DNA of 64,000 bases from an uncultured Planctomycetia bacterium (GCA_964629655.1 CAZVQU010000002.1:298840-362839), one strand, 5' to 3'; positions 15,084 through 24,601 are shown, numbered from the stretch's first letter. Made by a program: numbers and translations. Notes: generated from the sequence alone by a model not told the origin.

Positions 15084-15224
15084 TTCTAATAGAAAAAATC
15101 TACAATAAAACTATATATTACTATATATATAATATGTACTGGTTTTAAAGGCTAAAATCGGTTGGACCAAGCTTAACCGCTAAAAAATAGCAGCTACCGG
15201 AAATCTGATTGTCGACGGAAAATA

Positions 15225-15389
15225 GAGGAATCCTTTAAGTGTAAATTCAATACTCCTTATTTATCAACATACAATACCAAAAGCTTTTTATGCGCCATAA
15301 TTTTAGCTGTACATTTTTTAGATTTAGTGACACATGAATGAGAATGTTTTGGAATTGGGCGGACACAGTTTAAGCACACACTTTGCCAT
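15225..15389 (-). repeat. repeat unit copy 1: small ORF + spacer + conserved 46-nt block
   Basis: Block 15225-15270 (plus: gaggaatcctttaagtgtaaattcaatactccttatttatcaacat) is 43/46 identical to 17355-17400. The 21-codon ORF at 15324-15389 is paralogous to the one at 17455-17526. Confidence 0.8.
15324..15389 (-). CDS. small ORF, 21 aa: MAKCVLKLCPPNSKTFSFMCH (conserved-motif peptide, paralog 1)
   Basis: Hand-translated from the reverse complement. ATG at 15389..15387, TAA at 15326..15324. It begins 33 nt downstream of the methyltransferase stop on the same strand. It shares K-L-C-P-x-N-x-K-T and a C-terminal H with the 17455..17526 ORF, with synonymous differences in the conserved codons (TGT/TGC, CCG/CCA, AAT/AAC). 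The RBS is weak: GAGAGG abuts the ATG. Confidence 0.45.
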   Translation of the reverse strand: MAKCVLKLCPPNSKTFSFMCH

Positions 15390-15422
15390 CCTCTCTAAAA
15401 GGAAGTATTTTGTAATGTAAGT

Positions 15423-16022
15423 TTAGTGGTAAGCTATTGCTATTTTCTGATAATCAGATTTATGTATGCCGACCTCAAAACCCTTGATTGTGAGGTAAGC
15501 TACTGCGACACCTAGCTTATCTTTCGGAAACACATGCTCTCTTCCTTCACTTTTGTGAATTCTTTCGATAAGCTTAAAACCTTCTTCAGTGAAATCGCTT
15601 AAGACAATCTTACCATTTTCTGAAAGAACTCTTGTCATTTCGTCTACAATTTTTTCCAAGCAAGACAAATGATGTAACGTGTTAATAGAAAAAATTGTGT
15701 CGAAAGCACCATCTTTAAAGCTTAAGTTCTCGGCATTCTCTATTTTAAAATCGACAGAATTTTCAATATCCAGGTACTTTATGTTAGACATTGCATAATT
15801 CTGCTCCTCTTCTGAAATATCAATGCTTGTTAGGCGACAACCTTTTTTAGCAAGCTGAATAGTAAAATATCCCTTACCAGTCCCTACCTCCAGAATCCTT
15901 CCGTTAATCGGTTTTGCTTTGTTAAAAATAAACTCTCTCTCTTCCTCTATGTCATAGCCAAAGCTCTTGTACAGCTTGATTCTCTCTAGGTAGTACTCAT
16001 AGCTATCAGCCACCTTATTCAT
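15423..16022 (-). CDS. class I SAM-dependent methyltransferase (Methyltransf_11/UbiE-like)
   Basis: 199 aa. Motif I ILEVGTGKGYFT, with downstream acidic and DGAFD motifs of Rossmann-fold MTases. Confidence 0.8.
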   Translation of the reverse strand: MNKVADSYEYYLERIKLYKSFGYDIEEEREFIFNKAKPINGRILEVGTGKGYFTIQLAKKGCRLTSIDISEEEQNYAMSNIKYLDIENSVDFKIENAENLSFKDGAFDTIFSINTLHHLSCLEKIVDEMTRVLSENGKIVLSDFTEEGFKLIERIHKSEGREHVFPKDKLGVAVAYLTIKGFEVGIHKSDYQKIAIAYH

Positions 16023-16054
16023 AAATTACCATTAATAGCATTAGTTGTAGTCGT

Positions 16055-16378
16055 TTAGAATGTAACAACCTTGTCGCTTTCCTTTATAATATCATACATA
16101 TCATTCATCGTGGAAATAGGGCACATTTCAGACACTTCTTGCTCCCTGGACTTAATACATGTTCCACAAGCATAGATTTTACCACCCGATTGCATAAGCT
16201 CTTCTACCTGTTTAATCGTATCGAACTTCTTGGTGCCAATCTTTTGGTATTCTACCCCTTTGCCCATAAAGAAAACCTTAACTTCGTCGCCATATTTTAA
16301 ACAAAATCTGGCATAGCGTAAAGCATTCCAGCAAGTTTCTGGATCATCGGATGAAATAATGACCCCTATCTTTCCCAT
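16055..16378 (-). CDS. DsrE/DsrF-like family small protein
   Basis: 107 aa. Begins MGKIGVIISSDDPE and has the CGTC motif of a DsrE-like fold. Strong RBS AAGGAGG 6 nt upstream. The call is from memory of the family pattern. Confidence 0.55.
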   Translation of the reverse strand: MGKIGVIISSDDPETCWNALRYARFCLKYGDEVKVFFMGKGVEYQKIGTKKFDTIKQVEELMQSGGKIYACGTCIKSREQEVSEMCPISTMNDMYDIIKESDKVVTF

Positions 16379-16390
16379 AGAAACCTCCTT

Positions 16391-16756
16391 TTAATGGCAA
16401 CCATGATCTACGCAAGCGTTGTCCACGGTGATTTCTTCTAATTTGCCTTGTTCATAACTCTCAATTATCTCATGGCCAACCTTAGCGCTCACCCTATAGG
16501 CCCTGATTCCGCTTTCGTTGAGTTTTTGAACAGCTCGTGCCCCCATTCCTCTGCAAACAACAGCATTAATAGTTTGGTTCTCTAATACTTTCAAAGGGTG
16601 ACACATCCCGTGCATATGATTCTTATCGCTATTATCTATAATCTCAAAATTCTTAGCTTCAGTATCATAAATAAGAAAATGTGCTGCGCTGCCAAAATGA
16701 TCAAATACTTTTGATTTTAGACCTTCATTGGTTTCTATTGGCATGCATATTTTCAT
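16391..16756 (-). CDS. NifX/NifB-like dinitrogenase iron-molybdenum cofactor family protein (PF02579-like)
   Basis: Likely start at the MKICMPIET methionine: ATG 16756..16754 overlaps the upstream gene's stop (TGATG), implying translational coupling. The track's ORF 16391..16774 has 6 extra codons. Family-typical small protein motifs (HFG.A..F.I.D, CRGMGARA). Confidence 0.7.
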   Translation of the reverse strand: MKICMPIETNEGLKSKVFDHFGSAAHFLIYDTEAKNFEIIDNSDKNHMHGMCHPLKVLENQTINAVVCRGMGARAVQKLNESGIRAYRVSAKVGHEIIESYEQGKLEEITVDNACVDHGCH

Positions 16757-17229
16757 CAGACTATCCTCCCGCATATACCTCTGCCACGCCCCACACCTCT
16801 ACCTGCTCTTACCCAACCTTTACTTTCTGAGGCTCTATGGATATTTGTACTCTTACATTTTAGGCACCCATTAGGCCTACCCGAACCATATGGCAAACTC
16901 CACTCATTCTTGCAATCATAACAAACAAAATGTCTCTCCACCATTTTCACTACACCTCCTTCTATTTTTAATGCTTTGCCATTAACTAATGCATCTGCTA
17001 TTTTCTTATGTGCAGAAGAAATTATATTCCCAAAGGTCTGTCTTGAAACATTCATTTTTCTAGCACTATCCTCTTGATACTTATCTTCTAAATCAGCAAG
17101 GCGTACTGCCTCAAGTTCATCCATCGTAAGATTCACTTCCCTCAATGCGTCAGTCGGAATGCCTTTCGGCTTAAAATAATTAGAGTCAGGTCTACAACAC
17201 ACTTTTCTCGGCCTACACGGTCTTGGCAT
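16756..17229 (-). CDS. DUF134 (UPF0251) family predicted DNA-binding protein with extra C-terminal zinc ribbon and Gly/Arg-rich tail
   Basis: 157 aa. N-terminus MPRPCRPRKVCCRPDSNYFKPKGIP is the DUF134 hallmark. An HTH-like segment follows (QEDSARKMNVSRQTFGNIISSAHKK). The C-terminus adds CYDC...CLKC (a C-x2-C...C-x2-C ribbon) and ends GRGVGRGRGICGRIV. Confidence 0.75.
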   Translation of the reverse strand: MPRPCRPRKVCCRPDSNYFKPKGIPTDALREVNLTMDELEAVRLADLEDKYQEDSARKMNVSRQTFGNIISSAHKKIADALVNGKALKIEGGVVKMVERHFVCYDCKNEWSLPYGSGRPNGCLKCKSTNIHRASESKGWVRAGRGVGRGRGICGRIV

Positions 17230-17244
17230 ATGGCCCCCTTTGTA

Positions 17245-17264
17245 TTATTAGCATATGCTAATAA
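17245..17264. promoter_or_regulatory. perfect 20-bp palindrome TTATTAGCATATGCTAATAA (candidate operator) overlapping the -10/TSS of the DUF134-operon promoter
   Basis: Verified base by base: 17245-17264 equals its own reverse complement. It overlaps the predicted -10 (17261-17266) and lies ~20 nt upstream of the DUF134 start codon. Confidence 0.6.
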
Positions 17265-17289
17265 TAACATACTTCTATCTATATGTCAA
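17261..17289 (-). promoter_or_regulatory. sigma70-like promoter for the DUF134-NifX-DsrE-MTase operon (-35 TTGACA, 17-nt spacer, -10 TATTAT)
   Basis: On the minus strand the -35 TTGACA is at 17289..17284, followed by a 17-nt spacer and the -10 TATTAT at 17266..17261. The RBS AAAGGGGG precedes the ATG at 17229. Confidence 0.55.
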
Positions 17290-17354
17290 GATTTCAAAAA
17301 GATAAAACCCCCTGCTATAAAGTTCTATAATAGGGAAAATGGATGCGGAGGGGA

Positions 17355-17526
17355 GAGGATTCCTTTAGATGTAAATTCAATACTCCTTATTTATCAACAT
17401 ATTATCAAGAAAGCCCTTTATTAGCAAGAATTTTTACTGTGCGATTGTTTACATTTAGTGACGTTTGTATGCAGATGTTTTGATGTTGGATGGGCACAGT
17501 TTGGGCACAAACTGATATGCGCCCAT
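17355..17526 (-). repeat. repeat unit copy 2: small ORF + spacer + conserved 46-nt block
   Basis: Block 17355-17400 is 43/46 identical to 15225-15270. The spacer is ~60% identical. The ORF is paralogous to copy 1. The flanking GGAGGGGAGAGGATTC (17347-17362) recurs at 19082-19097. Confidence 0.8.
17455..17526 (-). CDS. small ORF, 23 aa: MGAYQFVPKLCPSNIKTSAYKRH (conserved-motif peptide, paralog 2)
   Basis: Hand-translated. ATG at 17526..17524, TAA at 17457..17455. RBS AAGGAG sits 11 nt upstream. It begins 36 nt downstream of the 92-aa membrane protein gene stop. An in-frame upstream TAA bounds the ORF. Confidence 0.45.
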   Translation of the reverse strand: MGAYQFVPKLCPSNIKTSAYKRH

Positions 17527-17562
17527 TATTTAAACTGCTCCTTTACGCTAGGGTGGGTGAAA
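17527..17562 (-). repeat. duplicated 5' leader segment (gtaaaggagcagtttaaata + GCTAGG-TG-G), copy A, upstream of small ORF 2
   Basis: 20/20 identical to 17849-17868, with partial similarity continuing ~15 nt. Carries the AAGGAG RBS. Confidence 0.7.
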
Positions 17563-17841
17563 CTACCCGACAATAAGAAGTATAAAACTAAGAATGAAGA
17601 TAGTTACTCCACCGTACTTCAAAAATTTACCTATTTTCACAGGTTTAAAGACTCGAATTGTTTTATCTGGTGATTCTTTATCAAGCTTTATGCCTAAATT
17701 AACAAAATAAATTCCAGCCATTAGCATAAAAATATTATTTATTTTCTCTGCAATCTTACCGCCCAATCTAAAATACCCTGCAATTACACCAATGATAGCA
17801 AGAATAATCATCAATCCAACCAACCTTTTCTTCTCCATCAT
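17563..17841 (-). CDS. small integral membrane protein (3 predicted TM helices), unknown function
   Basis: 92 aa. Hydrophobic segments LVGLMIILAIIGVIAGYF, IFMLMAGIYFVNLGI and GVTIFILSFILLIVG. Strong RBS AGGAGGAATG. Confidence 0.5.
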   Translation of the reverse strand: MMEKKRLVGLMIILAIIGVIAGYFRLGGKIAEKINNIFMLMAGIYFVNLGIKLDKESPDKTIRVFKPVKIGKFLKYGGVTIFILSFILLIVG

Positions 17842-17848
17842 TCCTCCT

Positions 17849-17895
17849 TATTTAAACTGCTCCTTTACTTTGAATCCGCTAGGTTGAGACTATTC
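17849..17895 (-). repeat. duplicated 5' leader segment, copy B, upstream of the 92-aa membrane protein gene
   Basis: Identical 20-mer tatttaaactgctcctttac (plus strand) plus similar flanking sequence, as in 17527-17562. Confidence 0.7.
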
Positions 17896-18345
17896 TACAG
17901 TCCTAAATAATATCTCCCTTATAATAAATATCTTCCCCTTGTCTAGCGGTTTACCTGGTTTAATCATTTCGACAGAAAATATACCTTGGCATATTTTATC
18001 TTTAATTTCAAACGATTTTAACCATACCTGACGAACCCTATTACTAAAATTAATCTTAGCTTCGTGTTCTATTATGAGACCCTGCTTAGACGAAGCAACT
18101 TTATACCTAATTCTACGAGGTAAATCTTTATTTAACAACTCTCCATCAATTTCAGCTTTAATAATATACTTACCTCTGGGAAGAGAAAATTCTATAGAAT
18201 CTTTATCTCCTGCAGCATTCGGTAGAATTAGCTCTGTTTTATGAAGTGATTGGTTATAATATGCTCTCCAGACACTTCTTGTGCCAAACAAAACTATAAT
18301 AATAGCTAATACAATAAAGATTCCTATATTTAGTTTCCGCATCAT
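17890..18345 (-). CDS. signal-anchored/secreted hypothetical protein
   Basis: The track ORF is 173 aa. The likely true start is MMRKLNIGIFIVLAIIIVLFG (ATGATG at 18345..18340) preceded by a G-rich RBS. The upstream 22 codons (MGHIKR...) fall in the duplicated 5' region. No family recognised. Confidence 0.5.
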   Translation of the reverse strand: MMRKLNIGIFIVLAIIIVLFGTRSVWRAYYNQSLHKTELILPNAAGDKDSIEFSLPRGKYIIKAEIDGELLNKDLPRRIRYKVASSKQGLIIEHEAKINFSNRVRQVWLKSFEIKDKICQGIFSVEMIKPGKPLDKGKIFIIREILFRTVE

Positions 18346-18436
18346 CCCCCCCCTATCTCTTCTTTCCCTTCCTATATTGTTTCCAACAATCATTCTTTTG
18401 ATATGACCCATATCATTTAAATTACTTCTTGCCCCT

Positions 18437-18907
18437 TTACTTCAGTTCTGCCAAACCTCTCTCACATCCTCTTTTCCAAGCCTCTGTAAATCTCAACGCA
18501 ATCGATTTTTCAAAATTCTCTCTTTCAAAACCATCGAAGGTCTCTATCGTAGCCTTGATTTCTTTGATTTGCTCGTTTAATATTAGGATTGCTTTTTTAA
18601 AATTTTCTTTTGCCTTATCTTTCATGCCCACTTCTTTATAAGCCCAACCTAGCCTAGCATAACTCATATAATAATTCTTATCTAACCCTACAGCTTTTTC
18701 GTAAGACTCAATGGCCTTATGCAAGTCTTTCGCTTCCATGTATGCCGTTCCCAAAAGGTCCCAAGACATAGGATTATCTGGCGCCCTTTCTATCCCTTTT
18801 TTAGCCCAATCCATAAGTGACCCTTCCTCTGCGTATAGGCTACAAGATAGCAGCACACTTAATCCTACGAAACATATTATTAAGAATAATATTTTCTTCT
18901 TCATCAT
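18437..18907 (-). CDS. TPR-repeat lipoprotein
   Basis: 156 aa. Signal peptide + lipobox-like LLSCSLYA. TPR-like repeats (AYMEAKDLHKAIESYEKAVGLD, ARLGWAYKEVGMKDKAKENFKKAI). Its 5' UTR/start (ATGATGAAG with AAGGAGGG RBS) is DNA-similar to that of 17890..18345. Confidence 0.55.
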   Translation of the reverse strand: MMKKKILFLIICFVGLSVLLSCSLYAEEGSLMDWAKKGIERAPDNPMSWDLLGTAYMEAKDLHKAIESYEKAVGLDKNYYMSYARLGWAYKEVGMKDKAKENFKKAILILNEQIKEIKATIETFDGFERENFEKSIALRFTEAWKRGCERGLAELK

Positions 18908-18974
18908 CCCTCCTTATCTTTTCTTCCCCTTCCTGTATTGTTTTAAACACTAAAAAACAGTATACCACCCGAAA

Positions 18975-19100
18975 GGCTACTTTGATAGGCACAAAATGGG
19001 CACAAGAAAGAATTATTTTTTTGATGAAGTTGTAACTGACTGTACAAGAAGATGTTGTGAAGGCAAAAAACAAAAACGGAGGGGAGAGGATTCTCCGCGA
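18975..19100 (-). repeat. degenerate third copy of the small-ORF repeat family (ORF remnant without start codon) plus GGAGGGGAGAGGATTC motif
   Basis: Plus-strand gataggcacaaaatgggcacaag (18984-19006) matches copy 2's gatgggcacagtttgggcacaa. On the minus strand it reads ...FFLVPILCLSK* with an in-frame TAA upstream and no ATG. Plus 19082-19097 is identical to 17347-17362. Confidence 0.55.
19063..19098 (-). terminator. candidate intrinsic terminator downstream of hemW
   Basis: Minus-strand RNA cggag-aatcctctccc-ctccg is followed by tttttgtttttt, 50-85 nt after the hemW stop. The stem is only 5 bp (GC-rich). Confidence 0.4.
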
Positions 19101-19148
19101 CTTGAACACGTGGACTATTAAAATAAGTAAGGGTAAACCTCAATCTTT

Positions 19149-20273
19149 TCAGAGAAAAGAGCTGGAAGCAGTATCTGAGAAACAAAAGCCCTTTTTGCTC
19201 AAATAAACCCCTACTATTCGGCCTTTTTCTCTTCGGTATTTAAGTAAACTATCCTTTGAAAGTCCCTCCAAAGCCTTACCCTCCAGCTTTAGGAAATCAT
19301 AACCGGTATGGTCCTTAAACCACTCAAAATTTACACCCTCTTTGGTCCGAATCTTTATTGCTGCCAGTTCCTTGGCCTGGTTCCTTTTGGACAATGTTTC
19401 ACTAAATGAAACCAGACTCTTTTGCTTTTTTATCTTATCAATATACTCAATAACGCTAGAGACATTTTTTTCTCTCTTGCCATTGATAAAAGATACTGCA
19501 GACGGGCCTAAACCTAGGTAGGAATTACCCAACCAATAGTTCCTGTTATGCTTAGACTCAAAACCTGGCTTTGAGAAGTTTGAGATCTCATAGTGTTTAA
19601 ATCCTCTCTCGGAGAGATAATCAATAGCCCCAATATACATTTTAGCCAGCACTTCATCGCCTAAAGGAATGACAAACTTCTTCTTAACCTGCAAAAACAA
19701 CGGGGTATTTTTCTCATAGGTTAAGCAATATGTTGATATATGTTTCAGACCTAAAGAAACTGCCTGTTTCAGCTCAAGCATCCATCCAGGTAAAGTCTCC
19801 CCGGCTAGGCCAAAGATTAAATCAATTCCTATATCCTTAAAGCCGACTCTCTTGGCCAATTGGACTGCCTCTATGGCTTTCTTTGAATTATGAACTCTTC
19901 CCAGCTTCCTTAGCTTCTTATCAGAAAAAGACTGCAGACCAATACTAAGACGATTAACCCCATTATCGTGGAATAACTCCAGTTTTCTCTTATCCAGGCT
20001 CTCAGGATTAACCTCAATAGTAAACTCCTCTACCTTAGTGCTTATCCTATTCAAAGCTTTTAGCAGTTTCTTCAGTAACGGCAAGCCTAGAACACTGGGA
20101 GTCCCACCGCCAATGTAAACTGTAGAGAAATCTTGGCCCAAAGCCTTTATTTGCCTACAAAGAACCTCTATATAGGCCCCAGCTAAAACCTGATCGTAAA
20201 AGCGGCTATAGAAATCACAGTAGGAACACTTCCTCCGGCAAAAAGGTATGTGGATATATAAGGATTTCTTCAT
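19149..20273 (-). CDS. hemW: radical SAM heme chaperone / oxygen-independent coproporphyrinogen-III oxidase-like protein
   Basis: 374 aa. CxxxCxxC (CRRKCSYCDF) near the N-terminus, GGGTPS motif and HemN-like C-terminal domain. Confidence 0.85.
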   Translation of the reverse strand: MKKSLYIHIPFCRRKCSYCDFYSRFYDQVLAGAYIEVLCRQIKALGQDFSTVYIGGGTPSVLGLPLLKKLLKALNRISTKVEEFTIEVNPESLDKRKLELFHDNGVNRLSIGLQSFSDKKLRKLGRVHNSKKAIEAVQLAKRVGFKDIGIDLIFGLAGETLPGWMLELKQAVSLGLKHISTYCLTYEKNTPLFLQVKKKFVIPLGDEVLAKMYIGAIDYLSERGFKHYEISNFSKPGFESKHNRNYWLGNSYLGLGPSAVSFINGKREKNVSSVIEYIDKIKKQKSLVSFSETLSKRNQAKELAAIKIRTKEGVNFEWFKDHTGYDFLKLEGKALEGLSKDSLLKYRREKGRIVGVYLSKKGFCFSDTASSSFL

Positions 20274-20294: not shown

Positions 20295-21552
20295 AATGAA
20301 AGGATTAGTCTACCTAATTCAGGGTCCACCGAGCTGGTTGAAAACGCCCCCTCTTTCTCTAGTTTATCTTAAGAATTACCTAAAAAAGCAGGGGCAAAAA
20401 GCAGAAATCATTGACTTAAATGCTCTGCTCTTTAAGGCTTCGAAACTTACCCTCCCTGAGTGGTTAAGCTTAGATAAGGAGTTTGAAGAGAGCTTATTTC
20501 CTCTAGCTGAAAGGAAATTCCCCTTTATTTTAGAAGACCTCTATAAAACAATTAAAGATGCTGAAACAATCGGGTTTTCTCTAAGCCAAAGAAACACCCC
20601 ATTTTCGTTCTCTCTGGCTAAAAGGATATCGGACCGGTTTCCTGCAAAAAGAATAATTTTTGGAGGACCTCACACATTCTTTTTAGAAAAAAAAGGCAAG
20701 CTTGATAGTAGAAACTACTGGGTGATTGGCGAAGGAGAAATTCCTCTCTGTGAAATACTCTCTAACAATGAGACCAAAATATATCGCTTCCAAGAAATAG
20801 AGAATCTTGATACTCTCCCCTTTTATGATTTCTCAACCCTAGATATAAATCTATATTCACAGACTCTGCCGCTTCTTTCATCACGAGGCTGCCCTTTTAA
20901 ATGTACCTTTTGTTCCGAAAAGATGCTTTTTTCTAAATTCAGACATCACTCTCCCCAATATATTATCGATCAGATAAAACACCTTAAAAATAAATACAAA
21001 ACTAATAGCTTTGTATTCTGCGATTCACTGATAAACTACAAGAGAAAATGGCTTTCTGAATTCTGCTCACTAGTGATAAAAAATCAATTAAACATAAAAT
21101 GGGAAGCGCAGATTAGAATAGAAAATAACTTCCCTAATGAATTAGCAGACCTTATGAAAAGAAGTGGCTGCTATAACCTCTTCGTTGGTTTAGAGAGCGG
21201 TTCAGAGAAAATACTTAAGTTGATGGATAAAGGTTTTACGACTGTCTGGGCCTTAAGCTTCTTTGAAACATTAACCAAAGCTAAGCTACACTTTGAAGTG
21301 AGCCTTATCTTTGGATATCCCGAAGAAAATGAAACCGACTTTCAGGAAACCTTAAGCTTTATTCTAAAGAATAAGCGCATTATTCCTAAAATTGCCCAAG
21401 CTAACCCTTTCGTGGATTATCTCGAGGGTTACCCTCGATACAACTTCCCCAATTTTGCGGCTAGAGCAAAGGTTAACCTATTCTTAAAAGCCTTAAGCAA
21501 AGAAAGAATCAAATACACCCGGAGTTTTATTAATAACCTGATATACAGATAA
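20295..21552 (+). CDS. B12-binding domain radical SAM protein (class B rSAM)
   Basis: N-terminal cobalamin-binding-like Rossmann segment (LVYLIQGPPS...LVYLKNYLKKQGQKAEIIDLN). rSAM cluster motif SRGCPFKCTFC. Start ambiguous. The track ORF begins at 20248, overlapping hemW's start. The first Met of the B12-like domain (MKGLVYL) is at 20295, preceded by a TATAAT-like element. Only ~21 bp separate the divergent start codons. Confidence 0.7.
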
Positions 21553-22403
21553 TGGTTAAATTCATCGAAACTCAAAAAGTCCTCTCGCCTACTCAGATAG
21601 CTCTTGCTGACTACGTAATTAACCCTTACCGGGGTTGTAGTTTTGGCTGTATTTATTGCTATTCACAGGAAAATAAAAATATTAAATTATCTGGCCTAAA
21701 GGATGTTGGAGTAAAGATAAATGCTGCTGCCATCTTAGAAAAAGAATTAAACTACAAAACCCCCAAAAGAGTTCTCCTGGGCTCAACTACAGAGTGTTTC
21801 CAAAATTTAGAGTTAAAGTATAGGGTTAGCGGAAGAATCCTGGAAGTACTTAATAGCCGTAAGATCCCTTATACTATCCTGACCAAATCTGCCCTGATTA
21901 GAGACTATTTAGGCTTTATCTCTGAGAATAAGAAGAATAAAATATACTTTACGCTTAACTTTGCCTGCGATAAGATAATAAAAGTTTTCGAACCTAACTC
22001 ATCAAAAATAGCAGGAAGGCTGGAAACCATCAACCAAATCATTGACAAAGGAATAAATTTGCGGATACACATCGGGCCTTTTATCCCCTTAATATCCTCC
22101 CTGGAGGAAATCTTTAATCTTATCCCTGCCGAAGCAAGAGAAGTAGATATTGAACTCTACCACAATAAGCAAGGCAACTTTAAAAGAATATTGACCTTAA
22201 CCGAAAAACTCTTGGGGAAAGAAAAAAGGGAAGAATTAGAAAGAATATATGCCTCAGAAAGATGCTACTCAAACTTTGCCAAAAAACTAAAAAATAAAAT
22301 CAAAAACTTAAAAGACTTTAGCAAATTCAAAATATTCTACATTGTACCTGATTTTGATAAATTCTATAACTCTGGGCTTGATTATGAGAAAACCCTTCTT
22401 TAG
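21552..22403 (+). CDS. radical SAM protein, SPL/COG1533 ('DNA repair photolyase'-like) family, short form
   Basis: 283 aa. INPYRGCSFGCIYCY is the signature N-terminal CxxxCxxC context of the SplB-like family. TAATG overlap with the upstream gene. Confidence 0.7.
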   Translation: MVKFIETQKVLSPTQIALADYVINPYRGCSFGCIYCYSQENKNIKLSGLKDVGVKINAAAILEKELNYKTPKRVLLGSTTECFQNLELKYRVSGRILEVLNSRKIPYTILTKSALIRDYLGFISENKKNKIYFTLNFACDKIIKVFEPNSSKIAGRLETINQIIDKGINLRIHIGPFIPLISSLEEIFNLIPAEAREVDIELYHNKQGNFKRILTLTEKLLGKEKREELERIYASERCYSNFAKKLKNKIKNLKDFSKFKIFYIVPDFDKFYNSGLDYEKTLL

Positions 22404-23235
22404 CGTAATTATACCTACCTACAACCGTAAGGATTTCCTGCCGATAGCAGTGGAATCTGTGCTCGAGCAAACATTTTCTAACTACGAGCTCATAGTTGTG
22501 GACGACGGCTCAACTGATGACACCTCAGAACGGTTAAGATCAAATCTCAACCGGATGAAAGCTATAAAATACATATATCAGCCGAACAATGGAGTATCTT
22601 CTGCTCGCAACAAGGGGATAAAGAATGCGAAAGGAGAGTTTATTGCCTTCTTGGATTCTGATGATAGATTCTGCAAGCACAAGCTAGAGATAACATATGA
22701 ACATATACAAAGTAACCCTAGTTATAGGATCTTTCACACAAATGAAGCTTGGTACAGAAATGGCAAACTGATCTCCCAAAAAGGTTACCAAAGAAAACCA
22801 ACCGGTTTTATGTTTGAGCAAGCCTTAAAACTTTGTTGCATAAGTCTCTCAGCAACGGCCGTTAAGAAAGACCTTTTCAAAGACATAGGTCTTTTTGATA
22901 AAGATTTTCCTGTCTGTGAAGATTATGACCTTTGGTTAAGATCAACTTCCAAATATCCGGTATGTCTCATACCCCAGATATTAACCATAAAAGAAGGCGG
23001 CCATTCTGACCAATTATCAACAAAGTACCCAGCTATGGATAAATTCCGAATTTGTGCCTTAGAAAAAATATTAAGGAACCAGAACCTTTCTGAACTTAAT
23101 TACCAGTTAGCTTATAAAGAACTTAAACGCAAGTGTGATATCTATATTAAAGGTGCTTTGAAAAGAGGCAAAAAAACTGAAGTCTCCCGTTATAGCAACC
23201 TTTGCAAAGACCTAAAGAAAAAAAGCCATGCTTGA
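22384..23235 (+). CDS. family 2 glycosyltransferase
   Basis: FSVIIPTYNRKDFLPIAVESVLEQTF...ELIVVDDGSTDDT and a downstream DSDD motif give a classic GT-A/GT2 signature. Start taken at MRKPFF (22384). Overlaps the neighbours on both sides. Confidence 0.8.
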   Translation: MRKPFFSVIIPTYNRKDFLPIAVESVLEQTFSNYELIVVDDGSTDDTSERLRSNLNRMKAIKYIYQPNNGVSSARNKGIKNAKGEFIAFLDSDDRFCKHKLEITYEHIQSNPSYRIFHTNEAWYRNGKLISQKGYQRKPTGFMFEQALKLCCISLSATAVKKDLFKDIGLFDKDFPVCEDYDLWLRSTSKYPVCLIPQILTIKEGGHSDQLSTKYPAMDKFRICALEKILRNQNLSELNYQLAYKELKRKCDIYIKGALKRGKKTEVSRYSNLCKDLKKKSHA

Positions 23236-24601
23236 AGAACTAAAAAAAATAATTGAAGATACTTTTTCTTTTCATCCCAGTCAAAATCAGCTTCGGATCT
23301 TAAAACGGCTTATTTTTGAAATCATGCGCAAGGAACACAAATCTCTTTCGCAAGTAATCGGCTATCCAGAGAAGACCGCTATTTTAGGTAAACACAAAGG
23401 AAAAGATAGATTCATCGTCCTAAGAAATATCCTAATCAAACACCGCTTCCCCCAAACATCGCAGCGTCAGGTAATCAATCCTAAGAATGTCTTCTCAAGC
23501 GAGGTAAGGCAACCTTTGAGTGACAATTGGCAAGTAGGGCCTAATTTTAAACCCTTAAAGATATTTGTCGAGAAAGACGTTACCAAGAGCCAACTTTTAG
23601 CTAATTTTCAGAAAAAATTCCCGAATGTGGAAGTTCAAGAAATTGACTATTATAGCAGCTACTTGAGGAAGAATAAATTTACTGTCTCAGAATTGAAAAA
23701 ACCGCTTGTTTTTATCGTTAAGGAAAGGGGCGACTTTATAAAAAGATGCCCCTGCACTAGGAAACACTTGCCCTGTGGCTACTGGATATTTAACTTAGGT
23801 TTTGGCTGCCCCTTTGATTGCTCTTACTGCTTTCTCCAGCAATATAGCAACTTCCCGGGAATAATTCTACCGGCTAATATAGAAGACTTCTTTGCTCTTT
23901 TTGATAAGCTGGCGAATTCCTTTGAAAAACCGATAAGAATCGGGACTGGTGAATTCTGCGATTCCTTAGCGCTTGACCATATAACTGAGTACTCTAAAAC
24001 ACTAATCCCTTATTTTAAAGATAAAAAAGTCTTATTTGAACTTAAGACAAAGAGCAACAATATTGCCAACCTACTAACCTTAAGCCCTTCAGCGAATATT
24101 ATCATCTCATGGTCTCTTGGCCCATCTTCTATTATTAAAAGCCAGGAAAGAGCAACTGCTTCCTTAGACCAAAGAATAGAAGCAGCAGTAAAAGTTCAAA
24201 CTGCTGGATTTAGCGTTGGGTTTCACTTTGACCCGATTATTGATTTAGGAGAGTGGCGAAGTTTATATGGCGAGGTTATTGATAAATTATACTCGAACCT
24301 TAAGGGTCCTTTTGCTTGGATAAGCTTAGGTACCTTGCGATCAAACCGCCGGCTTAAGACAATTACCGAGCTGCGCTTTCCCGAAAGTAATATCTTCTAC
24401 GGAGAATTATTTTTAGGTACCGATAAAAAATTGCGTTACCCTGAATTTATAAAAGAAGAAATTTATAAAGAAATAATTGACAAGATAAGACAATATGACG
24501 AAAAGACGCCGATTTATCTCTGCATGGAAGATAAACAAACCTGGACGAACACAAAAGGGCTGGTTCCTTCAAATGATATTGAAACCTCACTTACTTCTTA
24601 G
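23228..24601 (+). CDS. spore-photoproduct-lyase (SplB)-like radical SAM enzyme with ~100-aa N-terminal extension
   Basis: 457 aa. GFGCPFDCSYCFLQ aligns to the SplB cluster motif C..C.YCYLQ. LDQRIEAAVKVQTAGFSVGFHFDPII is nearly identical to B. subtilis SplB LDKRIEAAVKVAKAGYPLGF. Overlaps the GT2 gene by 8 nt. Confidence 0.75.
   Translation: MLEELKKIIEDTFSFHPSQNQLRILKRLIFEIMRKEHKSLSQVIGYPEKTAILGKHKGKDRFIVLRNILIKHRFPQTSQRQVINPKNVFSSEVRQPLSDNWQVGPNFKPLKIFVEKDVTKSQLLANFQKKFPNVEVQEIDYYSSYLRKNKFTVSELKKPLVFIVKERGDFIKRCPCTRKHLPCGYWIFNLGFGCPFDCSYCFLQQYSNFPGIILPANIEDFFALFDKLANSFEKPIRIGTGEFCDSLALDHITEYSKTLIPYFKDKKVLFELKTKSNNIANLLTLSPSANIIISWSLGPSSIIKSQERATASLDQRIEAAVKVQTAGFSVGFHFDPIIDLGEWRSLYGEVIDKLYSNLKGPFAWISLGTLRSNRRLKTITELRFPESNIFYGELFLGTDKKLRYPEFIKEEIYKEIIDKIRQYDEKTPIYLCMEDKQTWTNTKGLVPSNDIETSLTS

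Follow-up and report, generated by a model that had tools for sequence, protein, structure and literature searches.

The segment at positions 18975–19100 of the 64,000-nucleotide stretch of DNA analysed here (hereafter, the window), which a preliminary description had presented as a third, decayed copy of a repeat family fused to the hemW terminator, is, in our tentative opinion, a recombination joint at the hemW-proximal edge of an approximately 4-kb mosaic insertion, whose modules would have been stacked at short identities. Sequence comparison with relatives has shown that the insertion (15118–19152) is lineage-specific and that all three "copies" are situated inside it. As a whole, the feature looks like ordinary mosaic island-building by recombination and not like a spreading element or a dead small gene.

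The segment lies between hemW (19149–20273, minus strand), the product of which is a radical-SAM protein with homologues named HemW by NCBI, and the gene of a TPR protein of 155/156 amino acids (18437–18907, minus strand). Judging from the source names of homologues, the lineage is Candidatus Omnitrophota. Relatives were recovered via HemW homologues and showed 83% (L087), 81% (L088–L091) and 78% (L092–L094) identity. In all three of these related lineages, the hemW stop codon is followed by about 95 nt and then by hldE, kdsB and kdsA; the spacer of about 95 nt is the conserved hldE promoter with a TGGTATAAT extended −10 element. Using blastn, window position 15117 was found to be joined directly to 19153 in every relative. 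Since the hemW–hldE site is empty in three lineages and its edges are joined in the blastn alignments, 15118–19152 is to be regarded as inserted DNA. The C-terminus of HemW (SSSFL*) is intact, and the stop codon alone differs (TGA vs TAA). Among the relatives recovered, only empty sites were met at this position and no alternative cassette. The insertion and its genes are as follows.

15118–19152, minus strand: lineage-specific insertion of about 4.03 kb, from the hemW stop to the hldE promoter, delimited by blastn, gene maps, junction sequences and Pfam.
Seven island genes, minus strand: TPR155, p150, p92, DUF134, NifX-like, DsrE-like and SAM methyltransferase.

No clean target duplication was found at the island junctions, and the island, like the nearby window ORFs that were scanned, yielded neither an integrase nor a transposase. 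In Logan assemblies from eight SRA runs, both the left junction and the interior of the island down to 15242 are reproduced with 100% identity, and these assemblies stop precisely at the exact repeat core. For the right junction, from copy 1 to hldE, the window is the sole source. The nine contigs from SRA runs all match the window with 100% identity, and none of the sequences recovered from the same strain lacked the island or one of its modules. Four Logan unitigs of the same strain (L106, L107, L006 and L108, 100% identity, SRA runs of three accession series) match the window at 19194, 19181, 19003 and 18431, respectively. Two unitigs stop about 30–45 nt within hemW from the island junction (k = 31); such ends could be what a co-occurring island-free variant would give, or could be due to chance. 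Another lineage-specific block is situated on the other side of hemW, at 20305–23243, and comprises genes of a B12-binding radical-SAM protein, a second radical-SAM protein and a GT2 glycosyltransferase. It is absent in L088–L094, where SPL abuts hemW, and L087 has the GT2 part only. Variable sites are present on each side of hemW (n = 2).

Among the exact direct repeats in the 64-kb window, the three longest (32, 21 and 17 nt) all belong to the island. The remaining exact repeats are of 16 nt or shorter and at chance level, so that these three are exceptional for the window. They and the accompanying features can be listed as follows.

15216–15382, no strand assigned: copy 1 of a repeat of about 168 nt, with the exact core at 15240–15271.
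17346–17513, no strand assigned: copy 2 of the same repeat, with the exact core at 17370–17401.
Copies 1 and 2 (168 nt, 32-nt exact core): bracket the DUF134 / NifX-like / DsrE / methyltransferase module at a spacing of 2130 nt.
Pair of 17-mers: brackets TPR–p150–p92 and the body of copy 2 at a spacing of 1731 nt.
Pair of 21-mers: brackets p92 at a spacing of 322 nt.
17526–17546, no strand assigned: exact 21-mer TTATTTAAACTGCTCCTTTAC, with a second copy at 17848–17868.
Purine-rich leaders, 83% identical: bracket the TPR gene at a spacing of 561 nt.
18908–18949, minus strand: leader of the TPR gene, rich in purines and sharing 83% identity with that of the 150-aa gene (18347–18388).
17296–17335, minus strand: hairpin and U-tract between copy 2 and the DUF134 promoter, conserved in L008.

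Copy 2 consists of the 17-mer, a 46-nt block holding the 32-nt exact core, the body and, at the end, a tandem half-site motif. Copies 1 and 2 are collinear and 76% identical over 168 columns, with one 1-nt indel in addition to the 32-nt exact core; an identical run of at least 31 nt inside flanks that are 76% identical has a probability of 0.006. The 21-mer belongs to a homologous spacer of about 45 nt after the p150 and p92 stop codons. The three genes at 17563–18907 (TPR155, p150 and p92) have a homologous leader and start, ...TAAGGAGGrATGATGrAGAAGAAAA, followed by unrelated bodies, and the start region is also common to the 92-aa gene. They code for small membrane or secreted proteins, the first codons of which give MM and then basic and hydrophobic residues. 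A search for p150 homologues among 5.8 billion cluster representatives returned only p150 itself, the TPR155 and p91 products are the sole members of their 90%-identity clusters, and a metagenome scan with the TPR protein gave one TPR match of 27%.

The DUF134–NifX pair is a widely shared module that occurs in varied contexts in other genomes, once beside a transposase of an rve-type IS. This closest module (79% amino acid identity; L099, 2–1081) is in a mobile-element-rich context in that relative. In L098, the module is near HTH_17, RadC and an N6-methyltransferase. Among L098–L101, the contigs of three other samples all break 199 nt upstream of the gene. The hairpin at 17296–17335 is kept in the Omnitrophota SAG AM-312-C06 (L008), which does not have the repeat, and therefore it marks the start of the conserved DUF134 module and the end of copy 2. 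Just upstream of DUF134, a perfect 24-bp palindrome, TATTATTAGCATATGCTAATAATA (17243–17266), overlaps the −10 of a strong sigma-70-like promoter (TTGACA-17-TATTAT, 17289..17261, minus strand). It is 96–100% conserved upstream of DUF134 genes at no fewer than 12 loci in several phyla and probably serves the uncharacterised DUF134/UPF0251 regulator as an autoregulatory operator.

Copy 3 has a counterpart for only about 42 of the 168 nt of the repeat, namely for the 17-mer and for the motif region.

19077–19093, no strand assigned: exact 17-mer CGGAGGGGAGAGGATTC (first piece of copy 3), identical to 17346–17362, in an alignment that beats 300 shuffles.
18987–19004, minus strand: tandem half-site motif (second piece of copy 3), with the same motif at 17492–17509 and 15361–15378.

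The 16-mer GGAGGGGAGAGGATTC, reported earlier as common to this segment and copy 2, is indeed exact and occurs twice in the 64-kb window; its instance in copy 3 is at 19078–19093 and not at 19082–19097, i.e., the previous position was 4 nt off. It grows to the exact 17-mer, to which copy 1 shows 12 of 17 identities at 15216–15232. As estimated from the base composition of the window, the expectation of a second random copy in 64 kb is about 1e-6. In local alignment, copy 3 against copy 2 scored 34, above all 300 shuffles (shuffle maximum 28), and copy 3 against copy 1 gave no significance. The alignment of the GGCACA stretch to copy 2, also noticed previously, was confirmed: GAT-AGGCACA-AAA-TGGGCACAA at 18981–19005 has 20 of 25 positions identical to 17486–17510. 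Read on the minus strand, the 18-nt motif is TGTGCCC-ATTT-TGTGCCT in copy 3, TGTGCCC-AAAC-TGTGCCC in copy 2 and TGTGCTT-AAAC-TGTGTCC in copy 1, that is, two 7-nt direct repeats with a periodicity of exactly 11 nt at all three sites. The pattern TGTGCYY-N4-TGTGYCC, built from copies 1 and 2 only and used with one mismatch allowed, was found in the window at three sites, one per "copy" and all on the minus strand, vs 0.02 in shuffles. Searches for the motif and a 13-mer over all fetched loci returned the same strain only.

On the plus strand, the motif of copy 3 is followed by 71 nt and then by the 17-mer, whereas the order in copy 2 is the opposite: 17-mer, 123 nt, motif. With MAFFT as with local alignment, the sequence between and around the two pieces of copy 3 found no match. 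A pair of short words, permuted in order and with nothing else aligned, does not make a collinear decayed copy, and the former designation of the segment as such has to be abandoned; this arrangement fits a recombination joint better. Three non-random occurrences of shared sequence in the same orientation within 4 kb are real, although the third of these "copies" amounts to two pieces.

Proliferation of the repeat, suggested earlier, finds no support in the data: there are no more copies in the remaining 60 kb of the window, and exact scanning of three public collections (GTDB species representatives, JGI metagenomes and IMG/VR) with the 24-nt core gave 0 matches. Using blastn-short and tblastx, the three copies gave only chance-level matches against 80 DUF134 loci and the relatives, and nothing conserved was found at the repeat sites in the other genomes searched. 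A 13-nt match of the copies into DUF134 genes was judged to be due to chance. The opinion that the arrangement is not a simple tandem duplication has been upheld, and recombination, which was also proposed, is the best explanation of the shared sequence.

According to the explanation tentatively preferred here, gene modules would have been stacked one after another by recombination at short identical stretches. The 32-nt core would be the crossover segment of a Campbell-type or homeologous event, and the 17-mer and 21-mer would represent joints of microhomology scale. The repeats would be scars or substrates of those crossovers, which do not require a recombinase encoded by an element, and the hemW-proximal joint would be represented by copy 3, which would then not be a degraded element. 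The identical run of 31 nt plus fits a crossover or minimal-identity segment, or else a constrained site, and gene conversion or functional constraint could explain the exact cores equally well. The permutation of motif and 17-mer in copy 3 is not accounted for by any single simple event, and no recombination event itself was observed. In a bolder version, to which we give very little weight, the 168-nt unit and the 17-/18-nt fragments would be crossover sites of recombinase-independent or trans-acting cassette stacking, by which small gene arrays would accumulate downstream of hemW in Omnitrophota, integron-like yet devoid of attC hairpins and of a linked integrase; the repeats might then derive from the gene of a phage-type resolvase or homing nuclease targeting the site.

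The hemW-proximal part of the segment also contains the following putative transcription signals.

19065–19104, minus strand: terminator-like hairpin followed by TTTTTGTTTTTT, with the stem 19098–19093 / 19081–19076 and an 11-nt loop.
18959–18967, minus strand: extended −10-like element TGGTATACT, putative, as read from the sequence.

The hairpin starts 44 nt past the hemW stop, and the 17-mer makes up its 3' arm and loop. The statement that the shared word is placed in a hairpin with a T-tract was correct with regard to the minus strand, but the structure is weak: it has a 6-bp stem and an energy of −8.9 kcal/mol, with z = −1.1 against shuffles. It was flagged by a terminator consensus scan, and its U-tract and position fit a terminator, whereas its stability is unremarkable. 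The name "hemW terminator" is not supported: the sequence is absent after hemW in the relatives and consequently belongs to the island DNA, not being ancestral to hemW. In the present context, the C/U-rich 17-mer with the T-run may serve as a weak terminator for hemW transcripts. The element TGGTATACT, which resembles TGGTATAAT of the hldE promoter, follows the motif at a distance of 22 nt and precedes the TPR ATG by 52 nt. With this distance of 22 nt, the motif would come to about −52 to −35, and it may be a candidate activator site, of the direct-repeat-binding kind, upstream of a TPR promoter.

These signals lead to a different view of all the shared pieces, namely that they are functional regulatory sites, recurring on account of their function, with the TGTGCCC half-sites as an operator for a regulator that binds direct repeats (OmpR/PhoB-like architecture), the 17-mer and T-run as a terminator or insulator, and copies 1 and 2 as paralogous regulatory regions or orphan leaders. 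It is consistent with the excess of the motif (three occurrences vs 0.02 expected, always on the gene strand), with the 11-nt periodicity of its 7-nt direct repeats at all three sites, with the location of the copy-3 motif, which precedes the TGGTATACT extended −10 by 22 nt and the TPR ATG by 96 nt, and with the exact conservation of the 17-mer between unrelated flanks. However, copies 1 and 2 do not have a comparable −10 after the motif, the window ORFs scanned included no response regulator, and no conservation was observed in the other genomes searched. Besides the weakness of the terminator in copy 3, the 17-mer of copy 2 is outside any hairpin, and a separate conserved terminator follows that copy. 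On balance, we consider a purely regulatory origin of the repeats rather unlikely.

Three further explanations ascribe a gene or an RNA to the repeats. It is improbable, in our estimate, that they are degenerate remnants of a plus-strand gene of a small phage-type nuclease, PD-(D/E)xK or Holliday-junction-resolvase-like, which would have been a free-standing passenger of each module, similar to a homing endonuclease, and would have decayed afterwards. The idea comes from IMG/VR, where the exact 17-mer was found in five contigs, four of them related and carrying it within a 125-aa ORF (...TGGERIPVSDRRTPLDVKHPYLGIECK...); these viral contigs (L109, L110, L112 and L113) match window positions 17346–17375, the ORF being of a marine phage type. 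The 17-mer with one further base and the adjoining 12 nt of copy 2, TTTAGATGTAAA, are both exact in the four contigs with a 21-nt in-frame gap between them, and the nearby CCTTATTTA matches the viral CCCTATCTA. The chance of the second block was put by us, without any tool, at about 1e-5 to 5e-4. Moreover, the viral ORF weakly matches phrog_2002, Holliday junction resolvase (E = 0.007), and the catalytic core of the viral protein has its equivalent in that part of copies 1 and 2 which is conserved best. On the other hand, five matches to the 17-mer in IMG/VR are close to the number expected by chance according to our rough figure. A profile HMM of 19 viral homologues gave E = 29 for copy 2 and E = 150 for copy 3 among the window frames, and nhmmer gave E > 1 and, with the 17-mer masked, nothing. 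The frames are broken, the catalytic residues are missing, the copy-3 motif falls outside the would-be gene, and scanning with back-translated GGERIPLDV led only to an unrelated protein. In all, the Pfam, PHROG and profile searches on this nuclease remained below significance, and the profiles lend no support to homology.

It is scarcely credible that the repeats represent a family of small minus-strand ORFs (MGAYQFVPKLCPSNIKTSAYKRH / MAKCVLKLCPPNSKTFSFMCH) on a locally proliferating element, with copy 3 as a pseudogene. The minus-strand frame of copy 3, ...KK*FFLVPILCLSK*, had been read correctly: a TAA stands in frame upstream, and the frame has GTG and TTG codons but no ATG. Copies 1 and 2 each have an ATG-to-TAA frame ending at the same conserved TAA and an in-frame 6-nt indel between them, and AAGGAG is situated 11 nt upstream of the ATG of copy 2. 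But the Shine–Dalgarno-like sequence abuts the ATG in copy 1, and the substitutions have no third-position bias: the 41 differences between the copies, distributed by codon position as 6/7/9 and 7/4/7, reveal no codon periodicity and come in runs of 2–4 nt, and the 1-nt indel breaks two frames. Every frame of copies 1 and 2 gives approximately half-identical peptides in our own alignment of the translations, as is expected of drifting non-coding DNA; in the case of the ORF peptides, the identity of roughly 50% (our alignment) is what 76% DNA identity would give. Six candidate peptides from either strand have no record among about 15 billion proteins, and the minus-strand ORFs of the copies were never called by gene callers. 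Inverted terminal repeats are absent, the window and the collections scanned gave no copies elsewhere, and only 11 codons are left in copy 3. Thus, the small ORF shows no sign of coding, and the term "pseudogenised", applied to it before, is without basis.

A small non-coding RNA is also quite improbable. Copy 2, and possibly copy 1, would code for this RNA, the C/U-rich 3' part of which (CCUCUCCCCUCC) would pair with purine-rich leaders and Shine–Dalgarno regions of the island genes, and in copy 3 this same anti-SD segment would act in cis, with the TPR leader as its target. In fact, the GGAAGGGGAAG...AAGGAGGG leaders are nearly complementary to the 17-mer, the 17-mer and U-run are paired with the TPR leader in the MFE fold of 19115–18880 as well as in its centroid fold, and copy 2 is followed by a conserved terminator. 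However, the base composition alone predicts such pyrimidine–purine pairing, and the fold energies are no better than those of shuffles, with z = +0.25 for the 17-mer with the leader and, when both strands of copies 1 and 2 were folded, z between −0.6 and +1.6 (−0.64, +0.63, −0.03 and +1.62). No conserved promoter was identified for this RNA, and an Rfam search of the whole window gave one tRNA only and nothing at the repeats.

Several known classes of repeats and signals were considered in addition. There is neither an inverted repeat across the unit ends nor a target-site duplication at the junctions, as would be looked for in a MITE or an IS-derived element. A TR/VR pair of a diversity-generating retroelement (DGR) was rejected, as only 20 of 40 differences are at an A of copy 1 and no RT was found among the ORFs scanned. 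The same applies to an integron attC site: with RYYYAAC...GTTRRRY as the complementary R''/R' boxes, ATCCAAC is present in copy 2 but has GTTGATA as a partner, and the expected R''/R' hairpin is absent from the predicted folds. On the plus strand, GGCAC-N5-GGGCA agrees with the sigma-54 consensus at 8 of 11 positions, with the right GG/GC spacing in copies 2 and 3; this variant was set aside because transcription from such a promoter would run antisense into convergent genes at their 3' ends and because the spacing in copy 1 is wrong.

The annotation is to be corrected: the "hemW terminator" together with the whole repeat family belongs to a 4-kb lineage-specific insertion and is to be taken neither for a decaying small gene nor for a mobile repeat. 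The island provides a small, clean example of accessory genes stacked within a conserved row of LPS and housekeeping genes in an uncultured phylum, with short exact repeats at the module boundaries. Its accessory content includes a widely shared DUF134 / NifX-like / DsrE / methyltransferase module and three membrane or secreted proteins that are restricted to the lineage. Should such joints turn up at other places in the genome, a specific recombination mechanism would be indicated.

Comparing these features with known systems, the repeats are short and intergenic like REP/BIME sequences, Correia elements and MITEs, and such elements can carry promoter or terminator functions. Unlike dispersed repeats and MITEs, they have no terminal inverted repeats, palindromic structure or target-site duplication and occupy three sites of one 4-kb island. 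The structure at 19065–19104 shares with intrinsic (Rho-independent) terminators a G+C-rich hairpin, a U-run directly after it and a location 44 nt past a stop codon, and differs from them in having a 6-bp stem, an 11-nt loop and the stability of shuffled sequence as well as in not being ancestral to hemW. The half-site motif resembles the Pho-box-type operators of OmpR/PhoB-family response regulators: it is composed of two 7-nt direct repeats with a 4-nt A/T-rich spacer and an 11-bp periodicity, and in copy 3 it is situated just upstream of a putative promoter having no −35 element. It differs from the Pho box in the half-site (TGTGCCC vs CTGTCAT) and in the distance from the −10 (22 nt vs about 10 nt); two of the three motif sites have no obvious promoter, and no cognate regulator was identified.

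As in attL/attR sites formed by Campbell-type integration and in the tandem accretion of islands, direct repeats flank a module and an identical 32-nt core is embedded in less similar arms, and, as in arrays of such sites, serial modules share junction sequences. In contrast to attL/attR, the island has no integrase, excisionase or tRNA target, and copy 3 consists of fragments only; a check for a site-specific integrative element, covering the island and the nearby window ORFs scanned, gave no recombinase gene. Unlike in attP/attB-type systems, the arms of the repeat are about 70% alike on both sides, i.e., homeologous. To our knowledge, exchange by transformation is not known in Omnitrophota.

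Minimal mobile elements (MME) of Neisseria are described in PMC3082526, citing Saunders & Snyder 2002 and Snyder et al. 2007, as whole-gene cassettes situated between two conserved genes and incorporated by homologous recombination. The island differs from them in that only empty sites and no alternative cassettes were seen at hemW–hldE, and it has module-bracketing internal direct repeats, a trait that the definition in PMC3082526 does not mention. Like the MME of that source, it is a cassette between conserved genes, hemW and hldE, is present in one lineage only, has no mobility genes of its own and would presumably have been acquired by homologous recombination. With its conserved flanks, variable content and lack of mobility genes, the island, as far as may be judged from its sequence, fits the definition of an MME given there.
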